From IMG/VR virus record IMGVR_UViG_3300021400_000095: 64,000 nt of DNA. One strand, written 5' to 3'. The notes beneath the pieces were generated by a model. That model saw nothing but the letters and a program-made list of their open reading frames with translations, was not told the DNA's origin and ran no database searches. This document shows, one piece after another, positions 3,780-47,463 of the stretch. Made by a program: the position numbers and the translations under genes. How positions within the stretch are numbered: position 1 is the stretch's first letter; each line of letters begins with the position of its first letter. Source of the DNA: a virus. Its lineage: Duplodnaviria; Caudoviricetes.

Positions 3780-3815
3780 AATTTTATTTGTTTAATATTT
3801 GTTATTTTATTTTTA

Positions 3816-3825
3816 TATAAATAGT
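3816..3825 (-). promoter_or_regulatory. putative phage late promoter ACTATTTATA
   Basis: Identical 10-mer upstream of structural genes at 3816, 7491, 33582 and 58093. Confidence 0.6.
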
Positions 3826-3850
3826 TTTATTTTTTCAATAATATTTAATT

Positions 3851-7456: not shown

Positions 7457-7490
7457 TGTATCTTTGTTTATATAAACTTTATTTGCTCTC

Positions 7491-7500
7491 TATAAATAGT
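7491..7500 (-). promoter_or_regulatory. putative phage late promoter ACTATTTATA
   Basis: Exact motif 35 nt upstream of the fibre ATG. Confidence 0.6.
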
Positions 7501-7517
7501 CACAATATTAGAAAAAA

Positions 7518-7547
7518 ACAGGAAGACTTATTAATAAATCTCCCTGT
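7518..7547 (-). terminator. putative terminator
   Basis: Imperfect hairpin ACAGGAAGACTTA/TAAATCTCCCTGT with a minus-strand U-tract. Confidence 0.45.
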
Positions 7548-7628
7548 AAAAATAAAAAACAAATGATACAATTTGGCTTTTAAAACCTTTTCAATATAAA
7601 AATAATATATAATCTCTAAAAAAACAAG

Positions 7629-8780: not shown

Positions 8781-8794
8781 TTTATATATATTTG
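8764..8794 (+). promoter_or_regulatory. Bacteroidota sigma70 promoter TTTG-N19-TATATTTG
   Basis: Exact match to the established -33/-7 consensus, upstream of 8820. Confidence 0.7.
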
Positions 8795-8819
8795 CAGTAA
8801 CTAATTAAATATATAGTTT

Positions 8820-9224
8820 ATGAGTGAAAAAGTAAACACCACATTATTTGAAGATATTGTCAATAATGTGATAACAACAACAAAAAAAGGTATAGTCATA
8901 ACCATCCCAAAAACAATTAAATGGGAAAACTATAAGAAAGAACTTGATGCTGTTGCTGATTGGTCACAAGCAATGAATTTTAAAGTAAGCCATAAACCAA
9001 AAGACCTTGAACCTGGTAATAGGGTATATTTATGTTATAACAACCAAATTATTGGCTGGCAAACATTTATTGGATATTATACAGGTCAATTTAATTGTAC
9101 AACAACAGGAAATGATTGGAAAGGTGTCTTTATTCAAAGAAGTGGCCCATTCCACTACCTTGAAACACCTATTCCTTGTAAGGGATTCAGAGGATTTAAA
9201 TATTTTGATTATGTTGTAGAATAA
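8820..9224 (+). CDS. hypothetical protein (possibly PUA/ASCH-like fold)
   Basis: 134 aa ORF; PG.RVYL and PIPCKGFRGF segments. Confidence 0.7.
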   Translation: MSEKVNTTLFEDIVNNVITTTKKGIVITIPKTIKWENYKKELDAVADWSQAMNFKVSHKPKDLEPGNRVYLCYNNQIIGWQTFIGYYTGQFNCTTTGNDWKGVFIQRSGPFHYLETPIPCKGFRGFKYFDYVVE

Positions 9225-9258
9225 CATTCAAGAATTATTAAAATATAAAAGTTGACTT

Positions 9259-9522
9259 ATGAGAAAAACAATAAAAGAAATATTTACAACAAACATTAAT
9301 ACTACTGGGTTTGTTGATAATTCATCTTATACAACACAAACAAGTGCAAAACCATTTCAATGTGTTTATATTGCATGGTCACATGCACATGATTTCTATC
9401 CTGAAATGGTACTTGGATATTTTGACACAATTGTGGATGCAGAACAAGCAATTATTAATAATGGATATGGTGGTAGAATTGAACAAACCACTTGGGATGA
9501 ACTTACAAAAATAACATATTAA
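9259..9522 (+). CDS. hypothetical protein
   Basis: 87 aa ORF, co-oriented within the operon. Confidence 0.6.
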   Translation: MRKTIKEIFTTNINTTGFVDNSSYTTQTSAKPFQCVYIAWSHAHDFYPEMVLGYFDTIVDAEQAIINNGYGGRIEQTTWDELTKITY

Positions 9523-31232: not shown

Positions 31233-33170
31233 TTATCTAATCTTGCATCTTATTATAATATCATTATTGACATCCTTGATTTCAAGCATTGAATCATTGT
31301 TTGAATAAACAATGTAATCTGAAGCCTCCAAATCAATTTCAGAATAGTTACCTAAACCTCTCCATTCAAATACTTGTCCTGTTTCCTGTGTTGTTCTTGA
31401 TTTTGAATAATTTCCACCAAATAAATTATATACTTTCAAATCAATCAAATTCAAAACACCATCAACCTTTGAAATCTCTTTCTTGATGTCACCAATGAAT
31501 AAATCATCACCCATGTTATGTTTATTAATGTCCATGTAATCAGTAATTACTTCAACAATACCAGCCATAACATCTGCCTTATTATAACTCTTATCAATAA
31601 ACACATCAACAGTAAATCCTAAATTAATGATTTTACCAGACTTAATCTCAATATAATCATTAACCATCCTGTATTCTGATAAATAATCCCTTACATTCTC
31701 AGCCAAAACAGTTGGCAATGTGTCATCTAATTGACCCTTACTGTTCAATCCAAGTAAATATAACATTATTTTGTTGTTCTCTTCATTACAACTAACTCTG
31801 AATGGTGTCCCAAATTTTGGTGGCATCTGTAATGTCCTTGCAACATAATCCTTAACAGTAACACATCTATTCTTACTACCACTGTTATATTTAATCAAAT
31901 ATCTAAGTTCATCTGCTGTTGGTCTGTCCTTGCCAGAAACAGATGGTGTTGTACTAACAACTGAAATACTTTTCTTAACAGCATCTCTAAGACTTATATT
32001 GTCACCACCAATTTCACAATTAAGGTATGAAATATGATTTATTGCACCTTTAGCAACATTACTCTTCTTCCCACCACCAACTCTATATAATACAAATATT
32101 GTTGAATTTGGCCTTGGTAAGTAACCTAATGATTCATTCTTGATGATTCTTGATATTAGAAATTGTGAAAATGGTTTTCCTTCACTAATATCAACCTCAT
32201 CATTATTTGGGTCAACTCCTGCACCAAATATGATTTTTAAATACCCTCTATCTGTAAACTCAGTAATAAATTTATTTGTTACAGGCTTCCACTCACCCTT
32301 TGTTACACAATATGTCACATTGTTACAATCATCATATGCATATTTATGCCCACCATTTTTTTCACCATCAGCAACTTCCCAAATCTTTTGTTGTGCCAAT
32401 GACTCTACCTCAAAAAATCTTCTTGTTTTAATTGCATTGTCATTTTCACATTCAATGTCTTGTGTTGTTGAATAAAACTCACCATATGTTGGATTTATGT
32501 AAAGATTTGTACCCTCTCTTACAACAATTGATTCAACATTCATTGCATCTTCATCTGGAAGAACAATTTCCATAAATGGATATATATCACTGTTGCCAAC
32601 TGTCTTCTTGAATATCTTACTCTCACCTGCAACAACAACTGCTAATTTTGTTACCCTGTAACTGACAACAATGCTATTTGAATTGAGATTTGGTAAAATT
32701 GTTCTATCAGGATTTCCTCTTGAATCAAATTGTTCTGAAAAATCTACATCATCCAATAATTCAAAGTTTTGTGAACCTGCTGTTAATCTTGTACCCTTTC
32801 TAATAATTGGTGCATAATGATAATCAGGACCAATATCACCTTCACTATTTATTGGTAATGTGCAACTGAATTCAACTTCAGCCATTGCACCTTTAGGACC
32901 AGGAACTTTAAAACCATTGTTTCTGGCCAGTGCATATAATGAGCCTGTCTCTGATGCACTATCAATATTTGTCTCTTGAAATACTCTGTCAATATGATAA
33001 CTTAAATTATCAGCAATATCTGCATTAATATCAATAAGCCATGAACCAACAGAAGCATCATTGTAATTCATTTCAAGTTCAGGATAATATTTCTTTGAAA
33101 AATCAATTAATGCTTGCTTATAATCTTGATAATTCCTGTTTAAATAAGAGATTGTCTTTTTTTCAGCCAT
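31233..33170 (-). CDS. baseplate wedge protein (T4 gp6/baseplate J-like)
   Basis: YLNRNYQD..., LSYHIDR..QE..IDSA....SLY.LA...G, YRVGGG..SNV, RCVTVKDY; adjacent to the gp25-like gene. Confidence 0.85.
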   Translation of the reverse strand: MAEKKTISYLNRNYQDYKQALIDFSKKYYPELEMNYNDASVGSWLIDINADIADNLSYHIDRVFQETNIDSASETGSLYALARNNGFKVPGPKGAMAEVEFSCTLPINSEGDIGPDYHYAPIIRKGTRLTAGSQNFELLDDVDFSEQFDSRGNPDRTILPNLNSNSIVVSYRVTKLAVVVAGESKIFKKTVGNSDIYPFMEIVLPDEDAMNVESIVVREGTNLYINPTYGEFYSTTQDIECENDNAIKTRRFFEVESLAQQKIWEVADGEKNGGHKYAYDDCNNVTYCVTKGEWKPVTNKFITEFTDRGYLKIIFGAGVDPNNDEVDISEGKPFSQFLISRIIKNESLGYLPRPNSTIFVLYRVGGGKKSNVAKGAINHISYLNCEIGGDNISLRDAVKKSISVVSTTPSVSGKDRPTADELRYLIKYNSGSKNRCVTVKDYVARTLQMPPKFGTPFRVSCNEENNKIMLYLLGLNSKGQLDDTLPTVLAENVRDYLSEYRMVNDYIEIKSGKIINLGFTVDVFIDKSYNKADVMAGIVEVITDYMDINKHNMGDDLFIGDIKKEISKVDGVLNLIDLKVYNLFGGNYSKSRTTQETGQVFEWRGLGNYSEIDLEASDYIVYSNNDSMLEIKDVNNDIIIRCKIR

Positions 33171-33174
33171 AATA

Positions 33175-33564
33175 TTATATCTTTATACCAACACTGGTCT
33201 TTTCAACCTTATTACCTTTTTTAACACTATAATGTACAATGATAATCATTGAATTTTCATCATTCTCATCTGATGAAAATGTAATGTCATCAAACATGAC
33301 ATTCTCAACATATTTCCCAATATCTGTTGTTAAACTTGCCTTTAACTCATTTAATGTTGTCTCATCCTTTGGTCCAAATATATACTTGATTAAATCAGTA
33401 CCAAAATCAGGATTCCTTAATCTCTGACCCTTTGGTGTGAATAAGACATGTAAAACTTGTGATTTTACACTATCTGTCATTGTATCATTTAAATCCAAAT
33501 ATACCTCATCCAAATTCTCTGAAGTAAATGGATACCTTATTCCAAATTTTTGCTGTATTGCCAT
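33175..33564 (-). CDS. GPW/gp25 family baseplate protein
   Basis: LFTPKGQRLRNPDFGTDL..YIF signature. Confidence 0.9.
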   Translation of the reverse strand: MAIQQKFGIRYPFTSENLDEVYLDLNDTMTDSVKSQVLHVLFTPKGQRLRNPDFGTDLIKYIFGPKDETTLNELKASLTTDIGKYVENVMFDDITFSSDENDENSMIIIVHYSVKKGNKVEKTSVGIKI

Positions 33565-33581: not shown

Positions 33582-33591
33582 TATAAATAGT
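33582..33591 (-). promoter_or_regulatory. putative phage late promoter ACTATTTATA
   Basis: Exact motif heading the baseplate operon. Confidence 0.6.
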
Positions 33592-33685: not shown

Positions 33686-33708
33686 CCCCATGGTTTTTTC
33701 CCATGGGG
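33686..33708 (-). terminator. intrinsic terminator after glycan operon
   Basis: CCCCATGG-7nt-CCATGGGG hairpin just past the stop at 33719. Confidence 0.7.
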
Positions 33709-33718
33709 TTTTCTTATT

Positions 33719-35389
33719 TTATATTCTTGTTCCTTCAACCAAATCAAAATCAACTTCATATCTCTTATTTGGTTTGAAATTCTTTTGTACCCACAGTGTC
33801 CAAAGTCTTTCACATAAAAATGCAGGAATCATACTTTGCCATTTTAATACTTTTGTATGTATGTTTTTTCTTTCTTGCTCACTAAATCTAATATATTTTC
33901 CATTTTGGATGTTATTTATGACATGCTCATTTAATTTCCTTTCATCAGTTATGTTGTTTCTTTTTATCCACTCTGAACAACAATTAAATAAGAACTCACA
34001 ATATTCATCATATTTTTCTGCTTTCATAATAAAGCCTGATGAATAATAAAGATTTTCTCCATGCTCAATATATTCATTCCAATATCTTCTATATTCAGGA
34101 TAAAGTTCACCAACAACTTTTCTCATTGATTCAAGGTCATCAATGCAATGTGAAAATCTATAACCACCTCTAACTGTTTTTGCTGGAATATAATCATAAT
34201 TCTTTGGATAATTATATGGTTTTGCACAAATTACATCATACTTTTCAAAAATCTTATCAAAATCAGTATTTTCATCAATTCCTGTAAATCTTCTTCTGTA
34301 TTGACAATTTCCCTTATATTTTGCATCCTTTACATTTTTCCAAATCCAATATACACCAGTATTTTCTGCATACATATAATTTTCACTTGAAATATTATCA
34401 CCTGTATTGTCTTTAAGATAACATACATTTCTATGGTTTACATCTGCACCACATTGCAATGGTGTCATAATTGTATTATCAATGAAATCATAATCTTTCT
34501 TATCATAACATAACATGAAAAGTTGTACATCCTTTCTCTTTTCAAAATCAGGAGGGTCAATTGGAAGTAGGTATGACATGTCAATACCAAGTCTTTCTTT
34601 TACCATATCAACCTTTTCCTTTGTTACTTCATTATATCTGAAAAATCTTGTTTCTGTATATGATTCTCTTTTTTCATCATTAACAATATGGTCAGGAAAA
34701 CCTTTTTCCATCTTATTACAATATTCTTCAATTGTTTTTGTGCTATAATGTCTAATATATGCCAAACTATAATTATAAACAACAAATGGTGTTGTATCCT
34801 TGCAAGCATTTCCTACTGAATCACATTGTCCTACAACATTAATAACATGTGGATTTGAAGGGAATTTAACATTTGTTAAACCACCTCTTGCAATTGATTT
34901 AATATGATAGTTTTCAGGGAACTTATATGCAATTTGCTTATTATAGTCTATTGGTGTTTTGAACCTTTCAACAACAGGTTTATCTTCATAATGAACAATA
35001 CCATTATCACCATAACACATCCAATTGATTTTAATTCCATTAAATGGCTTGAAAATATCTCTTGAAAGGTATTCATCAATGGTTTTGTCTTCCACAAGTG
35101 TTAAAAACTCATCACAATCAAAAAATGCAATCCAATCATATTTATTACCATATGTTGCATAACATTCTGCATATGCATTTAACTGGCACACTGATTTATT
35201 TCTATAATCTTTAATAATAACAAAACCTGAATCAATATAATCACCAATTACATCTTCAAAATGTTCTTCACCATCATAGTTATTATCAAATAAGCATATA
35301 TTGGTAAAACCAAGATTTTTATAATATTCAACATATTCCCTAATATATTGATTTTCTTTTCTTCCAATGCAACAAAGTAATGTTTTCAT
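33719..35389 (-). CDS. glycosyltransferase fusion (GT-A, Glyco_tranf_2_4/GT92-like + DUF4422)
   Basis: EN.YIREYVEYY..LG, WIAFFDCDEF DxD motif; C-terminal DNTGDNIS..N..Y.E.TG.YWIWKN...YRR and LCERL. Confidence 0.8.
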   Translation of the reverse strand: MKTLLCCIGRKENQYIREYVEYYKNLGFTNICLFDNNYDGEEHFEDVIGDYIDSGFVIIKDYRNKSVCQLNAYAECYATYGNKYDWIAFFDCDEFLTLVEDKTIDEYLSRDIFKPFNGIKINWMCYGDNGIVHYEDKPVVERFKTPIDYNKQIAYKFPENYHIKSIARGGLTNVKFPSNPHVINVVGQCDSVGNACKDTTPFVVYNYSLAYIRHYSTKTIEEYCNKMEKGFPDHIVNDEKRESYTETRFFRYNEVTKEKVDMVKERLGIDMSYLLPIDPPDFEKRKDVQLFMLCYDKKDYDFIDNTIMTPLQCGADVNHRNVCYLKDNTGDNISSENYMYAENTGVYWIWKNVKDAKYKGNCQYRRRFTGIDENTDFDKIFEKYDVICAKPYNYPKNYDYIPAKTVRGGYRFSHCIDDLESMRKVVGELYPEYRRYWNEYIEHGENLYYSSGFIMKAEKYDEYCEFLFNCCSEWIKRNNITDERKLNEHVINNIQNGKYIRFSEQERKNIHTKVLKWQSMIPAFLCERLWTLWVQKNFKPNKRYEVDFDLVEGTRI

Positions 35390-35392
35390 ATT

Positions 35393-36202
35393 TTATTGTT
35401 TATTTTCCTCATTATTACCAAAAATATCTTCCATTTCAATCTTATCAGCTTCATAAATGCTTTCCTTTGGGAAATTATGAAGAATATATAAAGTAAACAA
35501 TCTTTCAGCCAAGAAGCCACAAATTCCTTGTTGGTATTTTACCCAATCCCAACCTATCTTTTCCTTATCAGGAGGGCATGTTGGTTGTGAGAATGTCTGA
35601 ACATGATGTTCCAATCTATCTTTGTTTGAAATAAAGAATGATTCCAAGAAAACATTGAGAACCCCAAAGACAAATTCACATGCCTTATCAAATTTTTCTT
35701 TCTCACAAATAAAACAATTTGCTGGATATAAAATATGACCATTGTTCATGTATTTGTCCCAATCATTGATATAATCAGGGAAAAATCTTTTCACAATATA
35801 TTCAATGGTAACAAAATCAACATAACTATGACACATGAAATAATTAAATTGAAGTGTTTGGTTGCCAAGGTCTGTTGGTTTGAATGTAATGATTTCTTTT
35901 TTATTCAATATACTACTGATATCCTTATATGAAAGACCAAATCTTCTTCTATAATGTTCACTACCAACATACTTGACATCTTTAACATTTTTCCATACCC
36001 AATACATTCCAGTTAACTCTCTCATACAATCATTTAATATTGAAATATTATCACCTGTATTGTCACAAGTCTCACAAATTTCAACATCCTTATGTAATTC
36101 TTTGCCAACATGTAATGGTGTATGCATTTCATCATCAACCAAGCCATACTCTGGCATCATATGAGTATAGCAATACAATTGTATTTTATTTGATTTCTTC
36201 AT
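35393..36202 (-). CDS. DUF4422 family glycosyltransferase (WbbM-N/WciB-like)
   Basis: PLHVG...DNTGDNIS.LN...ELTG.YWVWKN...HYRR, GFLAERL; start corrected to ATG at 36202. Confidence 0.8.
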   Translation of the reverse strand: MKKSNKIQLYCYTHMMPEYGLVDDEMHTPLHVGKELHKDVEICETCDNTGDNISILNDCMRELTGMYWVWKNVKDVKYVGSEHYRRRFGLSYKDISSILNKKEIITFKPTDLGNQTLQFNYFMCHSYVDFVTIEYIVKRFFPDYINDWDKYMNNGHILYPANCFICEKEKFDKACEFVFGVLNVFLESFFISNKDRLEHHVQTFSQPTCPPDKEKIGWDWVKYQQGICGFLAERLFTLYILHNFPKESIYEADKIEMEDIFGNNEENKQ

Positions 36203-36209
36203 TTTTTTA

Positions 36210-37322
36210 TTAAAATTTAAAATATGATAAAGCTCTTTCAATTGTTGGTGACATATCATAATATTTATATTCTGCAAGTCTTCCACCAAAAACAACATTT
36301 GGTTTATTTATTGAAAGTTCTTTATACTGATTATATATTATATTATTTTTATCATTATTAATTGGATAAAAAGGCTCATTTTGTCCATTGAACATTTCAG
36401 GGTATTCTTTTGAAACAATTGTATGATTTATTTTCATTACATCTTCTTTATTCAAACATTCAAAATACTTATGTTCAATGCTTCTTGTATAATCAACCTC
36501 AGTTGTAGTATAATTGATGACTGCTGTTCCTTGATATGATGGTGCATCATATTGCTTGGTTTCCCATCTTAAACTTCTATAGTCAAGTTTTCCAAATTTG
36601 TAATCAAAGAACTCATCAATACAACCTGTGAATATAATATTATTTGCCAATCCATCAAAATATTCTCTATTATCAAAATAATTACAATTTACTTTAATTT
36701 CAATACCTTTTAATAAAGAATCAAATAATTTATTATATCCCCCAACTGGGATTCCTTGATATATGTCATTGAAATAGTTGTTATTCCATTCAAATCTTAA
36801 TGGAAGTCTTTTAATTATATCAAGTGGTAACTCATTACATGGTTTTCCCCATTGCTTTTCAGTATAACCTTTTATTAATTTTTTATATATTGTTGTTCCA
36901 ACCATTGATATTGCCTGTTCTTCAAGATTCTTTGGTACAATATCTCTTGGTCTCTCTGATTCTATTCTCCTTATTGCATCCTCAGGTGTTATTACATCAT
37001 TCCATATCTCATGAAATGTATTCATATTAAATGGTAAATGATATAAACCATTATTTTCACCACAAAATGCCAATGGTTGATTAATGTAATTGTTAAATGT
37101 TACAAACTGATTTAAAAAATCCCATACTTTTTTATTAGATGTGTGAAAAATATGTGGGCCATATTTATGAACATTAATGCCATCAATATTTTCACAATAG
37201 CAATTCCCACCAATATGTGGCCTTTTATCAATAACAAGACACTTATAACCAAGTTGTTTTGCCATATAAGCAAAAACACAGCCAAATAATCCTGCACCAA
37301 CAATTAAATAATCATATTGCAT
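36210..37322 (-). CDS. glf: UDP-galactopyranose mutase
   Basis: YDYLIVGAGLFG, HIGGNCY, HKYGPHIFHT, YTEKQWG, GGRLAEYKYYDM. Confidence 0.97.
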   Translation of the reverse strand: MQYDYLIVGAGLFGCVFAYMAKQLGYKCLVIDKRPHIGGNCYCENIDGINVHKYGPHIFHTSNKKVWDFLNQFVTFNNYINQPLAFCGENNGLYHLPFNMNTFHEIWNDVITPEDAIRRIESERPRDIVPKNLEEQAISMVGTTIYKKLIKGYTEKQWGKPCNELPLDIIKRLPLRFEWNNNYFNDIYQGIPVGGYNKLFDSLLKGIEIKVNCNYFDNREYFDGLANNIIFTGCIDEFFDYKFGKLDYRSLRWETKQYDAPSYQGTAVINYTTTEVDYTRSIEHKYFECLNKEDVMKINHTIVSKEYPEMFNGQNEPFYPINNDKNNIIYNQYKELSINKPNVVFGGRLAEYKYYDMSPTIERALSYFKF

Positions 37323-37326
37323 ATTA

Positions 37327-38070
37327 TTAAAATTTTAAATCACCAAAAATTGTTTCTATTTTGTCAACCTTTTTAACTTGACAACTTGTCTTATTAATAT
37401 AATATTTGTCAATTTTATTTAAAACACTTGAATTCTTTTTCTCTTTAATATATGCTGCACACCACACACCAACATATTTGAATATGTTTTTGTAATCAAA
37501 TTCATCATTATATGTTATGTTGTCCATGATTTTCAATGTCTTCAGATAATCAATATTATTTTGATTATAATATTTTAACAAATTCATGCCAAGGCAAACA
37601 TCATCAACACCTGTATAACATTTATCTTTAATGAATTCAAAAATATCCTTCATTATTTGTTTATTTATAACAATAAAATTACCTCTTAAAAATGGTGCAC
37701 CTTGACTTTCAGCATTTGATAAGAGGTATCCACCATATAATTCCCTAACATTTGGGTCTAACCTATCCAATGTGTTTAATAATAGTTCAACATTTATCCA
37801 AGTACTTGTATTTGTTCTAACAATAAAATCATACTTGTTACTATTCCTGAAAACAGATAATGCCCTTATTGTTTTGGTAAATGTATGATTTAAATCATCA
37901 TCAGATTTAAGTTTTAAAACATCACCTTCAAGTGTATCTGTGCCATCACCTCTATAAAAAATAAGGTCACATCCTTTTCTTAATCTGCTACCCCATGTTT
38001 TCCTAATGATTTCTTCCTCTTCAAGAAATCTTTCTTGATTACAAGATTGTACTAAAAATAAAACTCTCAT
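37327..38070 (-). CDS. GT31/galactosyltransferase-like glycosyltransferase
   Basis: L..KT..AL....YDFIVRTN.ST.IN, F.RG, DDV..G pattern. Confidence 0.65.
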   Translation of the reverse strand: MRVLFLVQSCNQERFLEEEEIIRKTWGSRLRKGCDLIFYRGDGTDTLEGDVLKLKSDDDLNHTFTKTIRALSVFRNSNKYDFIVRTNTSTWINVELLLNTLDRLDPNVRELYGGYLLSNAESQGAPFLRGNFIVINKQIMKDIFEFIKDKCYTGVDDVCLGMNLLKYYNQNNIDYLKTLKIMDNITYNDEFDYKNIFKYVGVWCAAYIKEKKNSSVLNKIDKYYINKTSCQVKKVDKIETIFGDLKF

Positions 38071-38942
38071 TTTAAATCATATAATTTATTGGTACTTAGA
38101 CAAAAAACAGGTTTTTTTGTTATTCTATTTATTTCTTTGGCTTGTTGGTCATCTGATTCAACAAACAATTTATAATCACTCAACTTATTATACACATAAG
38201 ATTTATATAGCCAAGAAGGTGTTTTAGCCCTTTCTTCATATGAATCAGAATTAAACATATAAACTAGTTTTTTTGTCAGCCCAACACTATCTAAAAACTT
38301 AAAGGTTTGCTCCTTATATTTTATTAATCTATATGTACAAATTGTTATTTTGTCCAAAGTTGGTATTATTAGTGGTATTGGATTATCTATATATTTTACA
38401 TATTCATCAATTTTTCTCTCATCAGGTGGTTCAACACATAAAACACCATCTAAATCAAAAATAGTCTTTTCCATAATACCAGGATTTGAAAATAAATTCC
38501 ACTCATACAAGCATATACCAAATCCACTATTTTTAACATTTTTACTAATATCCACTAAATACAAATCTGGTTTATCAATCATACAACTTCCTTCAAGATA
38601 AACACACATAAATATGAATTCATATTCATTGTTGAATTTACTTAATTTCAATCTATTTTTCTTTGTCTCTGTCCCATTATAACAAGTATCATCTACAACT
38701 AAAATTTTTTTTGACTCAATGCTTCTTAGTTTTCTATTACCATGATTTGAACTAAAAACATCAGCACCCTTTTCAATAAATTCATTAATAGTACATAGCC
38801 CAACATTTAATTGACCTGCAATTATTGTTGCAGGTAACATTCCACTTCTTGGAACACCAATGATACCTAAAACATCTTTTGGTATTTTTGTTATATTTGT
38901 TTTAATATCTTCTATTATCTTTTGGTATGAAATATATTCCAT
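38067..38942 (-). CDS. phosphoribosyltransferase-HAD phosphatase fusion
   Basis: IGVPRSGM.PA and KILVVDDTCYNG (PRPP loop), then IFDLDGVLC (HAD motif I) and FVESD. Confidence 0.8.
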   Translation of the reverse strand: MEYISYQKIIEDIKTNITKIPKDVLGIIGVPRSGMLPATIIAGQLNVGLCTINEFIEKGADVFSSNHGNRKLRSIESKKILVVDDTCYNGTETKKNRLKLSKFNNEYEFIFMCVYLEGSCMIDKPDLYLVDISKNVKNSGFGICLYEWNLFSNPGIMEKTIFDLDGVLCVEPPDERKIDEYVKYIDNPIPLIIPTLDKITICTYRLIKYKEQTFKFLDSVGLTKKLVYMFNSDSYEERAKTPSWLYKSYVYNKLSDYKLFVESDDQQAKEINRITKKPVFCLSTNKLYDLK

Positions 38943-39586
38943 TTGAAATATTTACAATTAAAAATTGACTTATCTAAAACTACTATTTCTGTATTTGTTT
39001 TCCATTTAGCATAATATAAAGAGAGTTGGTCTCTGTGGCTTTTATTTTTTACCTCATTCCACCAACATTCCATTAGTTTTATGCATTCTGAATTATTGTG
39101 ATATCTGAAAATGATGGAATTTTGTGTTAAGCCATAATTTTCAGGAAACCCTTCTTTTTTATATCCTTCAACTTGTTCAAACATTGTTTCCTTTTTGTCT
39201 TTTTTAAGGTCAACAAGTGCTATTGCTTCATCATATATACAATTTCTCCCATATGGGTGTTTTCCAATAAAAACATAACCCTTGTCAGGTGTACAATTAT
39301 TTCTAACATACTCATTGATGTCTCCCTTAATATCAATATTACCATCAATGTAAATTGAAAAATCATATTCAGGTAAATATTTGTGGGGCAATATTTTGAT
39401 ACACCTGTTTTTCTTTGAATCTGACAATTCTTTTAATTCATCTGGAATATATCTTATTTCCCAAAAATCACTTTTCAAATTTTTATTATCAGTAAAACAA
39501 ATATAATCAAATCCATCTTGTTTTGGTTGGTTCTTTAATGTGTCATAATTACCTGCTATGACTGTATATATAACCTTTCTGTTCAT
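38915..39586 (-). CDS. DUF616 (TOD1/MUCI70-like) glycosyltransferase
   Basis: VIYT.I.G.YD, DYICFTD, KILPH.YL..YD.SIYIDGN, HP..RNCIYDEA, RDQLS. Confidence 0.85.
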   Translation of the reverse strand: MNRKVIYTVIAGNYDTLKNQPKQDGFDYICFTDNKNLKSDFWEIRYIPDELKELSDSKKNRCIKILPHKYLPEYDFSIYIDGNIDIKGDINEYVRNNCTPDKGYVFIGKHPYGRNCIYDEAIALVDLKKDKKETMFEQVEGYKKEGFPENYGLTQNSIIFRYHNNSECIKLMECWWNEVKNKSHRDQLSLYYAKWKTNTEIVVLDKSIFNCKYFKWNIFHTKR

Positions 39587-39661
39587 ATTTTTTTATGGGA
39601 AAATAAACTAAAAAAACATTAAAATCAAGTATATTGGTAAAAATCATTATAACAGTTATTA

Positions 39662-40024
39662 TTACTTACTTAATATCTTGATGAATTTTTTAATTAGTAG
39701 CAATAAAGTCTTAAACAACATATCTATTGACTTGTGATTCATTATTTTAAACTTCAAATTCTGCCACCAAGTCAATGATACATAAATTTCACTGTTATTA
39801 TTGTCTTCCCTTCTTAACTGATACACATATTTATCAAACACCTTAACATTAAGGATATCAGTATATTTCACTTTATCAGTTCTATATATTTTATAAAAAA
39901 TGTTTGGCTTATTGCTAATATAATAGTTATTTCCTACTATTGTAATGGTGTTATTTTTATCATAAACTTCTAATGTACCATCTGCTTCATTAAGTTCATT
40001 AGCTTTTAAGTTCTTTATCTTCAT
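39662..40024 (-). CDS. hypothetical protein
   Basis: 120 aa ORF overlapping the stop of the ATP-grasp gene. Confidence 0.6.
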   Translation of the reverse strand: MKIKNLKANELNEADGTLEVYDKNNTITIVGNNYYISNKPNIFYKIYRTDKVKYTDILNVKVFDKYVYQLRREDNNNSEIYVSLTWWQNLKFKIMNHKSIDMLFKTLLLLIKKFIKILSK

Positions 40025-40865
40025 TTTTTTTTAAATTTAACAAATCACCAATTATTTTATTATATTTACTATCCTTATAATGGAAAAATCCAGCGCCAGG
40101 TGTAAAGGTAAGTTCACCAATATATAATTTACCATTAATTTCATAAAAATCTACTCTTACAAACTTAAAATCTTCTGACAAAACCTTAGCATATTCAATC
40201 ATTTTATCAAATGTATTTGGTTTTTGTGGATTATATGGCATTGGTCTAAAATCAGTTCTTTCAATGTCAAGTTTATTGAAATTCATGTCATAATAGTTCA
40301 TCCTACCATGACCATTTCCATCATTAATTGTCATGAATTTTGGTTCACCATTAAAACACCAGAATTTATAATCAAACAATGATTGTTTTTGTCCTTCATC
40401 ACTCATATATTTTTCAACAAAAATTCTATGAGGAATATCATGATAATGCATTTCATAACCAACATGGAATGCAAAATCATCATTCATGAAACCTTGTAAT
40501 CTTCTTTCAGCATCAGCAATATTTAATGTGCTTTTATCTTTTACAATAATATTCATTCCTGAACCATGATTACATTTGATAACAAACTGATTTGGTAATT
40601 CATCCCAATTTATATCACTAACCTTATCATAAATTTTAATGATTGGAATGCATAAATCAACACCTAATTTCTCCTTACAATAATCATGCAATTGGATTTT
40701 ATCAGCACATCTTGTTTTCAATGGTGTTGAATCATAGATTTTCATCCAATTAAGTTTATCTTGAATTGTTACAGGATTATCAAGATTATAGCCAATGCCA
40801 TGCCTTTTACATAAATTAATTAATGGCTCTTTATATTTCTCAAATCTTTTATCCAATTCTTCCAT
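39999..40865 (-). CDS. TupA-like ATP-grasp amidoligase
   Basis: NP.T..DK..W.K, ADK, LPNQFVIKCNHGSG, DYKFWCFNG, FVRVDFY...GELTFTP; start corrected to ATG at 40865. Confidence 0.9.
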   Translation of the reverse strand: MEELDKRFEKYKEPLINLCKRHGIGYNLDNPVTIQDKLNWMKIYDSTPLKTRCADKIQLHDYCKEKLGVDLCIPIIKIYDKVSDINWDELPNQFVIKCNHGSGMNIIVKDKSTLNIADAERRLQGFMNDDFAFHVGYEMHYHDIPHRIFVEKYMSDEGQKQSLFDYKFWCFNGEPKFMTINDGNGHGRMNYYDMNFNKLDIERTDFRPMPYNPQKPNTFDKMIEYAKVLSEDFKFVRVDFYEINGKLYIGELTFTPGAGFFHYKDSKYNKIIGDLLNLKKNEDKELKS

Positions 40866-40866
40866 A

Positions 40867-43566
40867 TTACCAGTTACTATCAAATCTTGGGTCTAACATT
40901 TTTGGCTGTTTATCAACCATTATTTTTTTAACCCTAACCTTATTTTCTTCTTTCTTTGTTTCAAATGTTTTTTCAGCCTTTGTTGGTTCTTCTTTGACCT
41001 TGTTCTTATTTAGTAATTCTAATGCCTTTATCTTTGCTTTATTTTGATTTTCAACCAAAATATTCAATGTTGTATTAACAGGTGCTTGTATTGTTTCACC
41101 TGAAACATCAATGTCATTATAAACATCTTCATTCCCATTATATACATAGTTGAAATCAGTATCAATTTCATAATAACTGTTTGTAACCTTTTTTATTACA
41201 GCTTCTTCCTTCTTTTTTAATTTCATTGTTACTTTATTAACAAAATTAAGGTTTTCTTTTCTTATCTTTGACCTGAAATTTGTTTCCTTTGCAACAGTTA
41301 AATTAGTGTCATGAATTCTTCTCCTAAATAATACTTTGTCTATTTTAATATGTTTAAAGAATTTTTTAGCCCTTACTTCAAAATCAGTATCAGCTGAACA
41401 TGACCAAGGTCTATAACCACCAAGATAATCAAACACATCATGTTTAACATACATTTGTCCACCTGCAATTTGTGTTGATGTACTTCTTCCAAAATTTTTC
41501 ATTTTGAAATTAACAAATTCAGCATCACCTTTTTTCTTCATAATGGTTTCAACCATTTCAGTTAACATAACATCATCAGCATCAAATCTAATTAAACCAT
41601 CATATTTTGCAAGTGACATTATTGTATTGGTTGTAATATATGTTCCCTTGTTTTCTGTCATCATAAAAACCCTTAGGTTTCTATATTTGTTCATTATTGT
41701 TTTTACATATTCAAGTGTTTCCTCACAACCATCAATTCCAAGTAGAACTTCCCAATTGTCATGTGTATTAAACCATGTTTGTGCCTCAACAGAATCAAGA
41801 CATTCTTTAATGAATTTTTTTGCTTTATATGCTGTTATACAAATGGAAACACCACTTTCATAAACATTATCCATTTTAATTTTGTTTGTCTTTACTATTT
41901 TATTGTTTTTAACCCTATCCAAAAATTCTTTATTTGTTATTTCAATTGGACAAGCATCAACCAAAGCATTTAAATCAACCATTGTTCCTGCCTTATATTC
42001 TTGCAAATATTTCATTGCTTTTTCAATGGTGAAAAACTTATCCATTCTTACAGCATTCTTTCTATCCAAACCTATTGATTGGAAAAAATCATGGAATTTT
42101 ATATCAAATATGCTTTTTAATGTAATATCAACCCATAAATTTGGCACACCATATGCTTCTGCCATAATAATTCCATGCAATGATTCAGATATAATATAAT
42201 CACAAGAAAGTATTTCATCAATTACTTGTAACCAATTATTATATCCTGACATCTTTATTACATGAACACCCTTTTTCTGAGAAAAACTTTTTACAATAGA
42301 ACTATTAAGTGATGACCAATGTGGAATTAGCCCAATCTTATATTTCTTTTCAACAATTGGATAGTAATAATATGGTAATAATAAACTTGGGTCACCATAT
42401 ATCTCAGGACATTCAACACCCTTCTTTAATAAAAACTCCCTTGTTAATGGACCTCTTACTGCACATACTTTCTTTGGTGATTCATCCCATTTGGTATTTG
42501 GTATCTGTATTCCAGCACCCCAAACAATACTGTTACTGTCTATAAAATTACTGGTTAAAATTGACCCTATAAATGTATAATTCTCCCTGCCAGTTTCTTG
42601 ATAATCCACTAACTTCTTATCAAATAACTTTTGTAAGAAATAAAAATTAATATCATCCCCCCAATTATTATTAATCAACTTACCATTATTGTCTCTCTGT
42701 GTCCATGTATTAATTTTTATTAAATTTTCATTACAATCAATTTTTAATCTTTTTGCAAAATCAACCTTTTCTTTTGTCTTTTTGTTATACATAAAAAAAT
42801 AATCAAGGTCAAGCCTATCTTTCCCACCATTCATGTACTTTGTTGGCCATAACCTCACCATCTTCTTGGTAACATATTCTTCTATTGTCTTAAATCTATA
42901 GTGATTCAACCAAGCACCCTTCCAAACAGGAATGTCACCTAATTTAATTGCAATCCTACATTTTTCACCAACAGCATTGACAGTTGGTACATTTAAAAAA
43001 CAATGTGGACTTGTAACCTTAAAATCCTTGATGTTTGTTCTGATTATTGATTTTGCTTGTGTGTTTGATATTATTGCATGTTGAACAGGTATCTTATTTT
43101 CAAGACAAAATTTCTTATCAAAAACTTCAGTGAACCTCTTTATTGAATAATTGTTGTTTTTTACAGTTAATAAATTATTATCTGTAAATTGCTTCCAACC
43201 AATCCTGATACACTTTGCTTTGTCAAATTTCTTTTGACTGACAAACTCTTGAATTGTTTCTGATTTGTCAAATTCTATAAATTCATCAATATCCCAAAAA
43301 CAAATCCAATCATATTTATCTTTATATTCATGATAACAAGAATTATAAGAAGGAATTTGTGCTAATTCCTTCCCTCTCCAATTTTTTAATATTACATAAC
43401 CTGATTCAATATAATCCCCAATAACATCTTCAAAATGTTCACCATCAATGTCATTGTTGTCATATAAAACAATATTATTGAAACCAAGATTCTTGTGGTA
43501 TTCTACCCATTCTCTAATGTAATTGTTCTCTAATTTCCCAATACCACATAATAAAACCCTGCACAT
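40867..43566 (-). CDS. tri-domain glycosyltransferase / polysaccharide pyruvyltransferase / GT2 fusion
   Basis: N-terminal GT-A (WDIDEF); middle NWGD...IGSIL...VWGAG...AVRGPLT...GDP.LL...SLHGII.AEAYGVP; C-terminal GT2 (SICITAY, RFDADD, SADTDF); ATG at 43566. Confidence 0.85.
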   Translation of the reverse strand: MCRVLLCGIGKLENNYIREWVEYHKNLGFNNIVLYDNNDIDGEHFEDVIGDYIESGYVILKNWRGKELAQIPSYNSCYHEYKDKYDWICFWDIDEFIEFDKSETIQEFVSQKKFDKAKCIRIGWKQFTDNNLLTVKNNNYSIKRFTEVFDKKFCLENKIPVQHAIISNTQAKSIIRTNIKDFKVTSPHCFLNVPTVNAVGEKCRIAIKLGDIPVWKGAWLNHYRFKTIEEYVTKKMVRLWPTKYMNGGKDRLDLDYFFMYNKKTKEKVDFAKRLKIDCNENLIKINTWTQRDNNGKLINNNWGDDINFYFLQKLFDKKLVDYQETGRENYTFIGSILTSNFIDSNSIVWGAGIQIPNTKWDESPKKVCAVRGPLTREFLLKKGVECPEIYGDPSLLLPYYYYPIVEKKYKIGLIPHWSSLNSSIVKSFSQKKGVHVIKMSGYNNWLQVIDEILSCDYIISESLHGIIMAEAYGVPNLWVDITLKSIFDIKFHDFFQSIGLDRKNAVRMDKFFTIEKAMKYLQEYKAGTMVDLNALVDACPIEITNKEFLDRVKNNKIVKTNKIKMDNVYESGVSICITAYKAKKFIKECLDSVEAQTWFNTHDNWEVLLGIDGCEETLEYVKTIMNKYRNLRVFMMTENKGTYITTNTIMSLAKYDGLIRFDADDVMLTEMVETIMKKKGDAEFVNFKMKNFGRSTSTQIAGGQMYVKHDVFDYLGGYRPWSCSADTDFEVRAKKFFKHIKIDKVLFRRRIHDTNLTVAKETNFRSKIRKENLNFVNKVTMKLKKKEEAVIKKVTNSYYEIDTDFNYVYNGNEDVYNDIDVSGETIQAPVNTTLNILVENQNKAKIKALELLNKNKVKEEPTKAEKTFETKKEENKVRVKKIMVDKQPKMLDPRFDSNW

Positions 43567-43581
43567 GCAAATATATTTTAT

Positions 43582-43590
43582 TATAAATAT
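43582..43590 (-). promoter_or_regulatory. late-type motif ATATTTATA heading the glycan operon
   Basis: Shares the TATTTATA core with the structural-gene motif; 16 nt upstream of ATG and downstream of a terminator. Confidence 0.45.
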
Positions 43591-43605
43591 ATTTAAAATA
43601 TAACA

Positions 43606-43631
43606 AAAAACAAGCATAACTGCTTGTTTTT
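43606..43631 (-). terminator. intrinsic terminator after nrdG
   Basis: AAAAACAAGCA-taac-TGCTTGTTTTT. Confidence 0.75.
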
Positions 43632-43639
43632 CTTGTTTT

Positions 43640-44152
43640 TTAAGTGTTTTTTTTCCAAAACTTACTTGTTATGTCTTTCCACCCTTTCCTCACAACACCA
43701 TCAACTATGCAATACCATGAAAAATATTGTCCACCATAATACATTCTTTGATTTGTTGTTTCTTTATTAAGTGGTCCTGATGATTCAACATATGGCCCAA
43801 TTTTAAGATAATTCAAATTATCCCAATAAAAATCATCATCAATCTTTTCAGAACCAGAATAAAGCCCTATCTTTAAATTAGGATGTTTTTCTTTTATATA
43901 TAAAATTGCTTCTTTTAATGATTTTGGGTCATTTCCTTCACCCATAAAACAAAAACATGTAATTCCATCATTTTTTTCTATAAGGCTGTCTATGGCCTTA
44001 AAATTAAGTTCCTCACCAATATCTTTTCTTAAATATGGACTATGACAACCTTTACAATGATGTGGACAATTACTGATATTTACAGCCAATGTAATCTCAT
44101 CAGGAATCTCTGAAAAAACTACTGTTGTTTCTTCTTTAATATACTTAACCAT
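43640..44152 (-). CDS. nrdG: anaerobic ribonucleotide reductase activating protein (radical SAM)
   Basis: VFSEIPDEITLAVNISNCPHHCKGCHSP (CxxxCxxC), KIGPY, TTNQR; near nrdD. Confidence 0.92.
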   Translation of the reverse strand: MVKYIKEETTVVFSEIPDEITLAVNISNCPHHCKGCHSPYLRKDIGEELNFKAIDSLIEKNDGITCFCFMGEGNDPKSLKEAILYIKEKHPNLKIGLYSGSEKIDDDFYWDNLNYLKIGPYVESSGPLNKETTNQRMYYGGQYFSWYCIVDGVVRKGWKDITSKFWKKNT

Positions 44153-45098
44153 TATTAATATTGTTTAGCAAAAACTCATGAAAAAATAAAGAACCATTCC
44201 TTGAAATATCCTTTAGAGATTCATTTGATATTGTCTTCATCTTAATCATTTCCTTATTAATATTAACTTTTAATCCATATCCAACAAATGCTTTATTAAT
44301 AAAATCAATGTCCTTGTTAGACAAATTATTGCACATATTATTAATTATTAAAAATGTCTGATATGATTCAGTTTTAATTAAACTTTCTTTATATAACTTT
44401 AACAAATAATCATATTTTGCTTCATTGGAAAACCTTTTTATTTTGTTCTTAATAATTTCTAATCTACTTTCAGGAAAAAGTTCCAACAATTGAGTATATG
44501 TGGATGACACTATTGATTGCCTTTCATGATAATAGCAAGCATACATTGCATATGCAAAATTCCTTATCAATTCATTTCTTTCATTCTCAATAATTGTTTT
44601 TATCCCACCATACCAAGATACAATATCAATATTTTTATCATTTGAAATCCTTTTGTTAAAAATGTTTCCATGCATTAATTCATGATTTACAATAGAAACA
44701 ATTTTATTAAAGATTTGTTTACTATCAAATGATAACCTATCAAACTGACTTAAATAAAGTGTGAACTCCAAATCTGTCAATATAATATCATCACCAATAA
44801 TATTACCTCTTGGCATTGTACTGGCATAGGTTTTCCCAACCAAATCTTTAGTTATCACTAAAACCAAATGTACAGGTATTTTTTCACCATCAATCTCAAT
44901 TTCAAAATCTCTTTTATGTTCATTGTTGTTTACCATATCAACAAATTCTTTAGTAATAGACTTTGCAACTTCTGGCTGTTTATTAAATGAACCAAGAGCC
45001 TCATTAACAAAAGAAATCTCCTTTTCAAAAACTTCCTTTATTAATATGTTTTTTATTTTGTTTTCATTAAAAAATGGTGGTACAATATAACTATTCAT
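44145..45098 (-). CDS. hypothetical protein with HExxH motif (putative metalloprotease)
   Basis: IVNHELMHG plus downstream YHE; ATG at 45098 overlaps the nrdD stop. Confidence 0.6.
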   Translation of the reverse strand: MNSYIVPPFFNENKIKNILIKEVFEKEISFVNEALGSFNKQPEVAKSITKEFVDMVNNNEHKRDFEIEIDGEKIPVHLVLVITKDLVGKTYASTMPRGNIIGDDIILTDLEFTLYLSQFDRLSFDSKQIFNKIVSIVNHELMHGNIFNKRISNDKNIDIVSWYGGIKTIIENERNELIRNFAYAMYACYYHERQSIVSSTYTQLLELFPESRLEIIKNKIKRFSNEAKYDYLLKLYKESLIKTESYQTFLIINNMCNNLSNKDIDFINKAFVGYGLKVNINKEMIKMKTISNESLKDISRNGSLFFHEFLLNNINNG

Positions 45099-47463
45099 TG
45101 TCAATATTGGTTATATCTGTGTATACTCTTGTCTTTTGCTCAATCTGTCTTCCATCTGACCAATTCTTAACCTTTGTTAAATAACCTATAATTCTATCCC
45201 AAAGGCTGACATTAGTACTTCCACAATGAGGGCATTTTTCAAATGGTTGTTTTGCAATAAAACCACAATTTTCACATTGGCAATTTGGAATGTTAAATGT
45301 TAGATATGAACATCCATTTTCAGCAGCATATTTTAGTATTTTCTCATATTGTGCTTTTGATAAGTGTGCATCAAGATTTAAATGTGCTGCACTACCACCA
45401 TCCAAATAATCACCAATATAGTTTTTGCCCATTAATCTAATCTTTTCAAAAACACTGAGATTTTCATTTGGTTTATAAACATAACTTGCATACAAATTAG
45501 TATCATTTGGAACCCAGTAACCATCTTCTTTATCCCAATTATAATTCTTTACTGCAAGTGATTCAGCAGGAACTTGTTCAGTATTAAAAGTAATTTTGTG
45601 CTTTTCATCTGTAACTTTATGTAAAGTATTTTGTTCCTTAATGTTACCAAAAATGTTTTGGCAGAATTTTGCATAAGCATCATTATCTGTACACTTTAAA
45701 CCAAGGAATTCTGCTGCTTGATTCAAACCATTTAAACCAATTGTTAAATACTGTTTGTTAAGGTCAATAAAACCAGCTTTATAAACAGGCAATAGGTTGG
45801 AATCATACATGTCCCATAATAGTTCATTATATGCAGTATGATATTTATAAACTCTTTCAAGAATTTTGTTTAAATATGATTTCAAACTACTATAATCTGA
45901 ATCAGAACCACTAAAAACAAAATCATTGTTCTTTTCCTTCCTTGAATTGAACCAATCCTGAGTAATTCTATTAAGATTTAATGTTATAACAGACTTAGAA
46001 CCTGTCTGTACACCAATATTACCATTAGTAAAGTTAAATTCTTTGGTTTGTATCTTGTTTTTTAATCTGCAACATGAACTGAGGCTGTCAACAGAATCAC
46101 TTATATAAGTAAAGAAACTATGACCTCTTGCATATTCCTCACAGACAAAATTAAACATTTCCTCATCTTCAAATTTTCCATCTTTATAAAGAAGTGTAAA
46201 AGATTCAACAGGGAATGTTAACAAACACTTAAGTCTTTCATTGTTAAACCACATCATGAACTCTTTTTCAACCCACTTAAGGCTTTCCCAATCAGGTTGT
46301 GTTCCATCAGGAAAATAGAAATTACCAAACATACCATCAAAGAATGGCTTATCAAAATAAGAAAAATTCACGAAGGCGGATTGATAACCCCTTGCTGCTG
46401 CTGGTTGAGAAATGGTATAAACAATTTGCTGCCAATATTGATGTATTTGTCCCTTTATTGTTCTTGTCCCATCACCAAATTTAAGTATATAGTTAGGGTC
46501 TTCTTTAATGTGTTCACAATAATCCTTTAATTCATCTTCAGTCAATGGTCTTTCACTTTCATAAACAAGTTCATCTCTTAATTTATTTAACTCATCACTA
46601 CCAAAATCATGTTCTGCAAGTTCTTTTACATTATTAGTCCAATAGTGTGATTCATTAAGTAACTTTCTTAGTTTATAACCAATTTTATAAAATGAATTTG
46701 ATTCTTTATAAAAATCATCACCCCATTCTTTCTTACAGAAATAGGTAAAATATAATAGAGATTCAGAAGTAGCAACAGCACCTGCAAATTGTGAAGAAAT
46801 TGCAAAAATAAGATTGCAATACATTCCACAATATGAATCAATATTCTTTGGTTCAGCAGAAAGACCACCAATGTTCTTAAGACCATTTGTTAAAAATGGA
46901 TACATTGTTAAAGAAACACAATATGGTGCAATTGCTCCAGCAAAAGAAGATTCATCATGTTTGTATATAATATGATTTTCCAAATCTTTTACATAATTCT
47001 TAGCATTAAAAGTAGGGTACAAATCTTTCAATTTACCCATTATCATTTTTCTGCTAATTTGAAGATTCTCTTCTTTGTGTATTTCAGCATTTAATACACC
47101 AATATTTTTGTTTGCAACATTTGAATTATCATCAATAGTTGCATTTGCTGTATTGGTTGCTTTCTTGTAATTATTAATAAAATTAATTTTTCTTTCTACA
47201 AAATTTTCAATCTCTTCTTTCTTGTTTTTTACTGACCTATATGCATTTAAAAGTCTATCATCTCTTTCACTAAACCTCTCTTCTAATTGCTTTCTAATTG
47301 AGGAACATAAAATGCCATCATATATATACAAACTATCAACAATTTCCTTTGCACATTCTGCATTACATTCAACACCAGCAGTATTAAAAACCTTTTTAAT
47401 AATATTTATCAACTTCCTTCTACTAAATTCCTCATAGGAGCCATCACTTTTTCTAACATCCAT
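45091..47463 (-). CDS. nrdD: class III anaerobic ribonucleoside-triphosphate reductase with N-terminal ATP cone
   Basis: VRKSDG..EEF, IYKHD, PYC, LTFPV, SCCRL, PAESLA, CxxC...CxxC, glycyl loop RIIGYL. Confidence 0.96.
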   Translation of the reverse strand: MDVRKSDGSYEEFSRRKLINIIKKVFNTAGVECNAECAKEIVDSLYIYDGILCSSIRKQLEERFSERDDRLLNAYRSVKNKKEEIENFVERKINFINNYKKATNTANATIDDNSNVANKNIGVLNAEIHKEENLQISRKMIMGKLKDLYPTFNAKNYVKDLENHIIYKHDESSFAGAIAPYCVSLTMYPFLTNGLKNIGGLSAEPKNIDSYCGMYCNLIFAISSQFAGAVATSESLLYFTYFCKKEWGDDFYKESNSFYKIGYKLRKLLNESHYWTNNVKELAEHDFGSDELNKLRDELVYESERPLTEDELKDYCEHIKEDPNYILKFGDGTRTIKGQIHQYWQQIVYTISQPAAARGYQSAFVNFSYFDKPFFDGMFGNFYFPDGTQPDWESLKWVEKEFMMWFNNERLKCLLTFPVESFTLLYKDGKFEDEEMFNFVCEEYARGHSFFTYISDSVDSLSSCCRLKNKIQTKEFNFTNGNIGVQTGSKSVITLNLNRITQDWFNSRKEKNNDFVFSGSDSDYSSLKSYLNKILERVYKYHTAYNELLWDMYDSNLLPVYKAGFIDLNKQYLTIGLNGLNQAAEFLGLKCTDNDAYAKFCQNIFGNIKEQNTLHKVTDEKHKITFNTEQVPAESLAVKNYNWDKEDGYWVPNDTNLYASYVYKPNENLSVFEKIRLMGKNYIGDYLDGGSAAHLNLDAHLSKAQYEKILKYAAENGCSYLTFNIPNCQCENCGFIAKQPFEKCPHCGSTNVSLWDRIIGYLTKVKNWSDGRQIEQKTRVYTDITNIDNE

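Follow-up and report, generated by a model that had tools for sequence, protein, structure and literature searches.

A probable glycan-assembly island in a conserved slot beside the baseplate genes of jumbo phages

A variable glycan island in a conserved slot

The DNA analysed here is a 64,000-nucleotide stretch (hereafter, the window) of IMG/VR virus record IMGVR_UViG_3300021400_000095, a fragment (22% complete) of a jumbo phage that has not been cultured, with nearly all genes on the - strand. Beside its baseplate genes, nine co-oriented open reading frames (ORFs; 33719-43566, - strand, ~10 kb) very probably form a phage-owned island for the assembly of a glycan in the cytoplasm, as judged from the enzymes they encode. 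Pfam assigned seven glycosyltransferase (GT) domains to this block (two GT92-like, two DUF4422/GT111, and one each of GT31-like, DUF616 and GT2), together with a UDP-galactopyranose mutase (Glf), a pyruvyltransferase, a TupA ATP-grasp and a fusion of a phosphoribosyltransferase (PRTase) with a HAD phosphatase. The initial annotation of this DNA had listed nine co-oriented genes with these domains, and all were confirmed on the - strand. The best relatives point to a rumen phage with a genome of ~350 kb as the source, and megablast of the window returned no near-identical phage record.

Related loci were retrieved with the baseplate J protein and with the GT92-like/GT111 fusion at the baseplate end of the block (hereafter, the anchor enzyme) as queries. 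They are referred to by L numbers for loci and G numbers for genomes; G001 and G002 are complete, the latter with 363 kb and 435 ORFs. The order nrdG / glycan island / GT92-GT111 / baseplate W / baseplate J / giant protein was conserved in at least 10 jumbo phages, whose shared proteins are 50-70% identical, and the anchor enzyme sits at the baseplate end of the island in every relative compared. A search at E <= 1e-10 gave 489 homologues of this enzyme. The top 120 without exception have its domain architecture, and many of these are on contigs of 200-378 kb. No island precedes baseplate W in Flavobacterium phage immuto, a relative that has been cultured.

The content between nrdG and baseplate W falls into about nine architectures of two to about ten genes, with re-fused domains. 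TupA is fused to DUF616 in two relatives (L003 and L028), single chains of GT111-GT92-GT111 or GT4-GT111-GT92-GT111 occur in the islands of others, and yet others carry DUF5672, GT4 or a hexapeptide acyltransferase. Glf is present only in the window phage and one relative, and is missing from the complete G001 and G002. A cassette varying among related phages had been predicted, and synteny bears this out with the addition of a fixed anchor. As read from these gene orders, the island combines a conserved anchor with other parts that change fast, much as a K- or O-antigen locus of bacteria does.

In three relatives the slot also holds DUF723/DUF4379 zinc-finger (homing-endonuclease-like) genes between the island and baseplate W, and it is therefore an insertion hotspot too. 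The adjacency of block and baseplate operon noted in the initial annotation is thus conserved, while a functional link between them is not established. Several strong hairpins, which could be small RNAs or mobile-element ends, were seen in long intergenic stretches before the baseplate W or endonuclease genes (L003:9322-9604, L002:7298-7472 and L005:6646-6830). Distant paralogues (23-24% identity) of a 319-aa protein encoded between nrdD and nrdG (window 44145-45104) occur in relatives, within the islands of L001 (4983-5927) and L005 (4013-4957) and between island and baseplate W in L002 (8541-9464); neither the 319-aa protein nor these paralogues matched a family in Pfam or the ESM Atlas.

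The block had been described as bounded by terminators, and the hairpins at its two ends each folded better than 200 of 200 shuffles. The ORF list places the start of the first gene at 43617, within the upstream hairpin; ATG 43566 was adopted for this 899-aa protein because the resulting N-terminus matches the paralogous GT92 domain. The block contains one CG and the rest of the window four (the genome piece has 5 CG in 79 kb). It is nearly CG-free like its surroundings and so has undergone the same shaping as the remaining genome, in agreement with the long residence proposed for it. The observed/expected CG of the window's phage is 0.003. The complete relative G002 has 6547 CG in 363 kb despite proteins that are 50-70% identical, and the CG purge is therefore recent or lineage-specific within the clade.

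Given these features, we consider it extremely unlikely that the block is passenger DNA, a functionless capsule-locus fragment from a host. An insertion hotspot would suit such a fragment, but every ORF is intact, the block is as purged of CG as its genome, the anchor is kept in hundreds of phage contigs, and domains were re-fused many times without decay.

Enzyme families and fold models

Profile and structure annotation, named as a check on the initial annotation, bore out the GT92, GT111 and PRTase folds. The two DUF4422 domains (PF14393) scored 133 and 142 bits against a cut-off of 25. DUF4422 matched the N-terminal, galactofuranosyltransferase domain of the Klebsiella polymerase WbbM by sequence (E 2.7e-13) and, for the anchor enzyme, as the top Foldseek match (6u4b, E 4.9e-14). 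The GT92-like domains (PF01697) scored 57.8 and 67.3 bits against a cut-off of 23. In the fold model of the anchor enzyme (predicted local distance difference test, pLDDT, 90.6), the N-terminal domain matched the plant GT92 galactan synthase GalS1 (8d3z, E 3e-9), and a search with the whole protein also returned the two-domain polymerases K4CP and heparosan synthase. The DUF4422/GT111 proteins are galactofuranosyltransferase-like and, with Glf co-encoded in the window, are predicted to use UDP-galactofuranose (UDP-Galf) as donor.

The 291-aa protein matched PF00156 (Pribosyltran) with 27.4 bits against a cut-off of 26.3. Its assignment as a PRTase-HAD fusion holds because the motifs of the HAD part and of the phosphoribosyl pyrophosphate (PRPP) loop are conserved and the model contains a PRTase fold. 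HAD residues D163, D165, T213, K247, E262 and S263 and PRPP-loop residue D85 are invariant in 32 homologues, at least 90% of them share T86 and D265, and the first half of the AlphaFold model (pLDDT 95) adopts a type I PRTase fold, with XGPRT fold matches at E 1e-6. The family comprises more than 900 proteins of ~290 aa, including some from Bacteroidales and Prevotella genomes. Its position between GT genes, and a bacterial trio described below, make it a candidate glycan ribofuranosylation module that would transfer ribose 5-phosphate.

Two of the enzymes have homologues in other phage contexts. In a rumen Bacteroidales contig (L126), a PRTase-HAD homologue (44% identity, 2185-3036) immediately precedes the genes with which a small phage or prophage of the HK97 type encodes TerS, TerL, portal, prohead protease and capsid (3808-9413); the context of the Bacteroidales homologue L125 was uninformative. 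Prevotella Lak megaphages share one of the fusion enzymes: phage Lak-A1 (L124:8630-10828, with TAG read as Q) encodes a 732-aa pyruvyltransferase and GT92-like fusion, whose domains are 44% and 54% identical to those of the 899-aa protein and stand in the opposite order. This enzyme stands alone without an island, and its gene lies among IMPDH-like, OmpA-like, HD and DNA polymerase B genes.

Predicted product and lack of export machinery

The soluble enzymes of the island would draw in the cytoplasm on host nucleotide sugars, on UDP-Galf from the phage's own Glf and on PRPP. Their product would be a heteroglycan, probably with galactofuranose and ribofuranose, a pyruvate ketal and an amide-capped acid sugar, a composition read from the genes. 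It may be a polymer, because the GT92-like/GT111 and GT92-like/pyruvyltransferase/GT2 proteins resemble the bifunctional polymerases of ABC-transporter-type pathways.

The block enzymes had been described as soluble, and transmembrane (TM) prediction agreed: no convincing membrane helix was predicted in any of the nine proteins, and the single borderline hydrophobic stretch, in the 301-aa protein, reaches KD19 1.61 against a threshold of 1.6. The initial annotation had also reported no flippase, polymerase, ABC permease or initiating transferase, a result that was upheld and now extends to complete relatives. No Bac_transf phosphoglycosyl transferase was found in the window's record (G000) or in relatives G001-G003, with no separate search for PF00953. 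A hydrophobic-segment scan of all 435 ORFs of G002 found none with more than four segments, which leaves no room for a flippase, Wzy, an ABC-2 permease, a WecA-type enzyme or an oligosaccharyltransferase; a 6-TM protein of the ABC-2 permease kind was found neither in G002 nor in the window. The phage alone therefore cannot export or lipid-prime a glycan. The initiating transferase, flippase and polymerase of a Wzx/Wzy-type locus are lacking; of the ABC-transporter pathway, multi-domain cytoplasmic GTs of polymerising type are present, and the ABC-2 permease/ATPase and lipid primer enzyme are absent.

Promoter classes of the island and virion operons

The motif ACTATTTAT[AT] occurs 57 times in G002, with 46 of the 57 copies in the intergenic 8.7% of the genome and 38 co-oriented with, and 12-90 nt before, a start. 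Boxes of the ACTATTTATA class head the tail sheath and baseplate W genes and the operons holding the major capsid protein and portal, which were located in G002 through the T4-like head genes of Flavobacterium phage immuto. The primase has host-type TAnnTTTG boxes, and ACTATTTATA therefore marks a phage-specific class that includes virion genes. The box of the baseplate operon is kept in L001, L002 and L003, and appears as ACTATTTATT in L005.

The initial annotation had the block opening with this structural-gene core. The class does head virion operons, but the block itself has only a variant, TATTTATA at 43591-43582, which ranks 21 on its strand with 6.3 bits, whereas canonical sites score 13.8-20.1 bits. 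The variant recurs at the homologous site of L002, variants of its class show a 2.7-fold enrichment before starts over shuffled A/T words, and TerL (terminase) uses the variant class. In L028 a near-canonical box lies ahead of the island. Late expression of the block is plausible on these promoter sequences.

Other candidate signals were seen. A host-type promoter at 43575 (TATATTTG) was rejected, being 2 nt from the ATG, without a correctly spaced TTTG and unconserved in L002. Within the 899-aa gene (window 41137-41165), ~270 nt before the TupA gene, a one-mismatch box copy, ACTATGTATA (10.8 bits), overlaps a TTGATA-17-TATAAT match and may be an internal promoter or chance. In G002, three TnpB-like (phrog_506) genes (L006:4622-5878, L007:6090-7217 and L010:4977-6137) each lie behind a ACTATTTATA box, and the homing-endonuclease-like genes of L002 and L005 each have one of their own.

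Virion proteins and the host envelope as candidate acceptors

One or more virion proteins as the acceptor of the glycan is the leading reading, unproven and in our estimate just short of an even chance. It is favoured because of the ancient link to the baseplate genes, the promoter class common to virion operons, the lack of membrane machinery and the parallel with the fibril clusters of giant viruses. At least one virion protein would most likely be glycosylated in the cytoplasm before lysis, giving strain-specific sugar coats. A bolder and unlikely version is that phages of the clade cover baseplate, fibres or the whole virion with a genuine polysaccharide coat, a viral K-antigen, which WbbM-like polymerases would make and cassette exchange would diversify as in bacterial capsules. 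Such a coat might shield particles or bait the glycan-harvesting surface proteins of Bacteroidota hosts.

Several observations weigh against a virion acceptor. The C-termini of the G002 capsid and sheath have no Ser/Thr tails, and the tail tube was not located. Among eight patterns counted in the window's virion proteins, [ST][GA]S was in excess (26 against 15.4 +/- 3.7, z ~2.9), which is weak after eight patterns, and [ST]GS, D[ST][AILVMT], NxS/T, TT, S/T triplets, TP and SP were not; PHROGs gave almost no matches for large virion proteins. The anchor enzyme has no match to mycobacteriophages, the closest bacterial kin of the block enzymes are in capsule or cell-wall polysaccharide loci, the island slot attracts homing endonucleases, and the 120-aa ORF ends in a membrane-seeking helix. 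The ACTATTTATA class also precedes nrdD, nrdG, PhoH, TnpB-like and homing-endonuclease genes, such a box is missing from L027, L032 and L035, and the block's own box is weak; membership of the late (virion) programme, as first claimed, is not established.

The solubility of the enzymes leaves a host-envelope target possible, because soluble GTs are equally usual in lipid-linked synthesis. On the membrane's inner face the island enzymes could act on host lipid-linked intermediates, with host exporters displaying an altered capsule, lipopolysaccharide or cell-wall glycan, which could mask receptors, block superinfection or keep progeny off debris. We regard this as a serious though rather doubtful alternative. 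It draws on bacterial GT92-like homologues whose capsule locus also encodes two pyruvyltransferases, GT4, GT2 and an acyltransferase, on a DUF616, GT31 and PRTase-HAD trio that recurs in an Erysipelotrichaceae genome, and on the last 18 residues of the 120-aa ORF, a cationic amphipathic helix (muH 0.65, charge +5) and possible membrane tether. WbbM and the C. jejuni enzymes Cj1432 and Cj1438 (PMC12096443) are moreover lipid-primed polymerases, and large GT clusters of cyanomyoviruses are usually interpreted as envelope-directed (PMC12801897). Against this, the complete relatives have no initiating transferase or polytopic membrane protein, so that every membrane step would have to be borrowed from the host; the anchor gene belongs to the core of the whole clade and is linked to the baseplate operon; the promoter class is common to virion operons; and the 120-aa ORF is not conserved, having no homologue among the related loci examined. 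Wzx/Wzy routes are usual in Bacteroidales, and the polymerase-like enzymes fit them poorly.

The same lack of export genes and of an acceptor signature, with dual-GT enzymes that are polymerase-like, would suit a different destination for what is made in the cytoplasm. The product could be a polysaccharide, free or bound to a carrier, that lysis sets free as decoy, matrix or adhesion aid, or it could be glycosylated host or non-virion phage proteins. The tight, ancient linkage to the baseplate operon argues against such a product, we know of no phage precedent for it, and we judge it quite improbable.

Of the preference for a virion glycan over host surface or DNA in the initial annotation, the part concerning DNA stood, while the acceptor is not established and the envelope is a serious rival. 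Phage GT clusters that add mono- to trisaccharides to 5-hydroxymethylcytosine exist, derive from lipopolysaccharide or teichoic-acid enzymes and can be situated near structural genes (10.1101/2023.12.21.572611); by this reading, the island would build sugars on modified phage bases. We find this very unlikely. Known DNA-glycan clusters depend on enzymes that provide a hydroxymethyl-pyrimidine handle (10.1101/2023.12.21.572611), and no C5-cytosine methylase (PF00145) was found in the complete G001 and G002; Tet/JBP (PF12851) gave no match there either, though the control was silent. The thymidylate-synthase family (PF00303) is present in G002 and missing from G001, which therefore has no hydroxymethylase candidate. 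Seven GT domains with pyruvylation, amidation and ribofuranose are also far beyond known DNA glycans. The G002 thymidylate-synthase match (G002:18981-21418; L041/L042) is in two pieces ~1.2 kb apart on the same strand and may be split by an intron or intein.

Comparison with known glycan systems

By gene content, the island has a close parallel in the fibril-glycosylation clusters of Megavirinae (Mimivirus, Megavirus and Tupanvirus), which have 6-33 genes in a conserved slot (PMC10117803; PMC8456856). Both are virus-encoded, clade-specific variable clusters in a conserved slot, with multi-GT proteins and a pyruvyltransferase; those of Megavirinae include proteins with 3-4 GT domains and the pyruvyltransferases L143 and Mg538, and synthesis there is cytoplasmic and without host secretory machinery. 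Megavirinae differ in being giant viruses of eukaryotes whose clusters encode nucleotide-sugar pathways and whose glycans were chemically shown on fibrils, whereas here Glf is the sole sugar-supply gene and the glycan is predicted from the genes. In mycobacteriophages Che8, Corndog and Myrna, soluble GTs decorate virion proteins in the cytoplasm (Freeman et al. 2023, as cited in PMC11256854 and PMC12619734). According to these citing papers, few GTs are involved and the glycans are at the C-termini of capsid and tail-tube proteins, a kind of tail that the G002 capsid and sheath lack.

Like WbbM, a D-galactan I polymerase (GT111 + GT8), the anchor enzyme has two GTs in one chain, with Glf in the same locus. 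Its partner domain is GT92-like rather than GT8, and an ABC transporter, a WecA-type primer enzyme and an O-antigen context are absent. In the HS:2 capsule locus of C. jejuni, which has its own mutase, Cj1432 combines a GT, a HAD phosphatase and a PRTase, and Cj1438 a GalfNAc transferase and an ATP-grasp amidoligase (PMC12096443). The predicted toolkit is the same by description: a ribofuranose is added from PRPP and then dephosphorylated, a furanose is transferred, and an ATP-grasp enzyme amidates an acid sugar. The relatives L003 and L028 resemble Cj1438 in having their ATP-grasp joined to a GT. Unlike in HS:2, the domain order is PRTase-HAD and there are no Kps export or poly-Kdo genes. The cyanomyoviruses P-SSM2, S-SCSM1 and S-SCSM2R are large lytic myoviruses carrying as many as 13 GT genes for which no target is known (PMC12801897); their islands have other GT families, sugar epimerases and Kds genes, and no conserved baseplate-side anchor has been reported for them.

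Table 1 Features of the glycan island, its flanks and insertions in related loci. Coordinates without a locus prefix are those of the window.
Feature	Coordinates	Strand	Basis and remarks
nrdG-like activase	43640..44152	-	phrog_626 and synteny; upstream slot flank in all relatives
Terminator-like hairpin with U-run after nrdG	43605..43632	-	-14 kcal/mol, z -4.1
TATATTTATA, variant of phage promoter box ACTATTTATA, 25 nt before ATG	43582..43591	-	6.3 bits
899-aa GT92-like + polysaccharide pyruvyltransferase + GT2	40867..43566	-	Pfam; 62% identical L002 orthologue; Lak megaphage homologue
TupA-like ATP-grasp, probable glycan-carboxylate amide ligase	39999..40883	-	PF14305, E 9e-47; likely start ATG 40865
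Orphan 120-aa ORF, cationic amphipathic C-terminal helix	39662..40024	-	no Pfam annotation
DUF616/TOD1-MUCI70-type glycosyltransferase	38915..39586	-	PF04765, E 5e-16
PRTase-HAD fusion, 291 aa, candidate PRPP-dependent ribofuranosyl transferase + phosphatase	38067..38942	-	PF00156, motifs, model
GT31-like glycosyltransferase (Galactosyl_T)	37327..38070	-	PF01762, 28.4 bits vs cut-off 23
UDP-galactopyranose mutase (Glf)	36210..37322	-	TIGR00031 equivalog, 385 vs cut-off 304 bits
Stand-alone DUF4422/GT111 galactofuranosyltransferase-like protein	35393..36298	-	PF14393, E 4e-41
556-aa GT92-like + GT111 fusion, conserved island anchor enzyme	33719..35389	-	Pfam, fold, synteny
G+C-rich hairpin closing the block	33686..33708	-	z -3.5
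Canonical ACTATTTATA box of baseplate operon	33582..33591	-	16.9 bits
Baseplate wedge W (33175-33564) and J-like (31233-33170)	31233..33564	-	phrog_43, phrog_219; downstream slot flank
Homing-endonuclease-like insertions	L002:7472-8383, L005:6830-8149, L035:11855-12811		DUF723/DUF4379

Discussion

The literature searched contained no description of this island. New here are the conserved slot with its variable island, the anchor enzyme, the whole-genome lack of export and priming genes in relatives, and the survey of promoter classes. To our knowledge, the only phages whose particles have been shown by experiment to carry glycans are mycobacteriophages, and the only viruses known to make polysaccharides are giant viruses of amoebae.

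A whole clade of ~350-kb rumen and gut phages keeps an island resembling a capsule locus, with a fixed anchor and rapidly exchanged decorating enzymes. If the acceptor is the host surface, the island would amount to a lytic-phage programme of unusual size for remaking the bacterial envelope. If the glycan is carried by the virion, it would influence how hosts, mucus and antibodies recognise the particles, and strains in the gut virome would have a further, new source of diversity.

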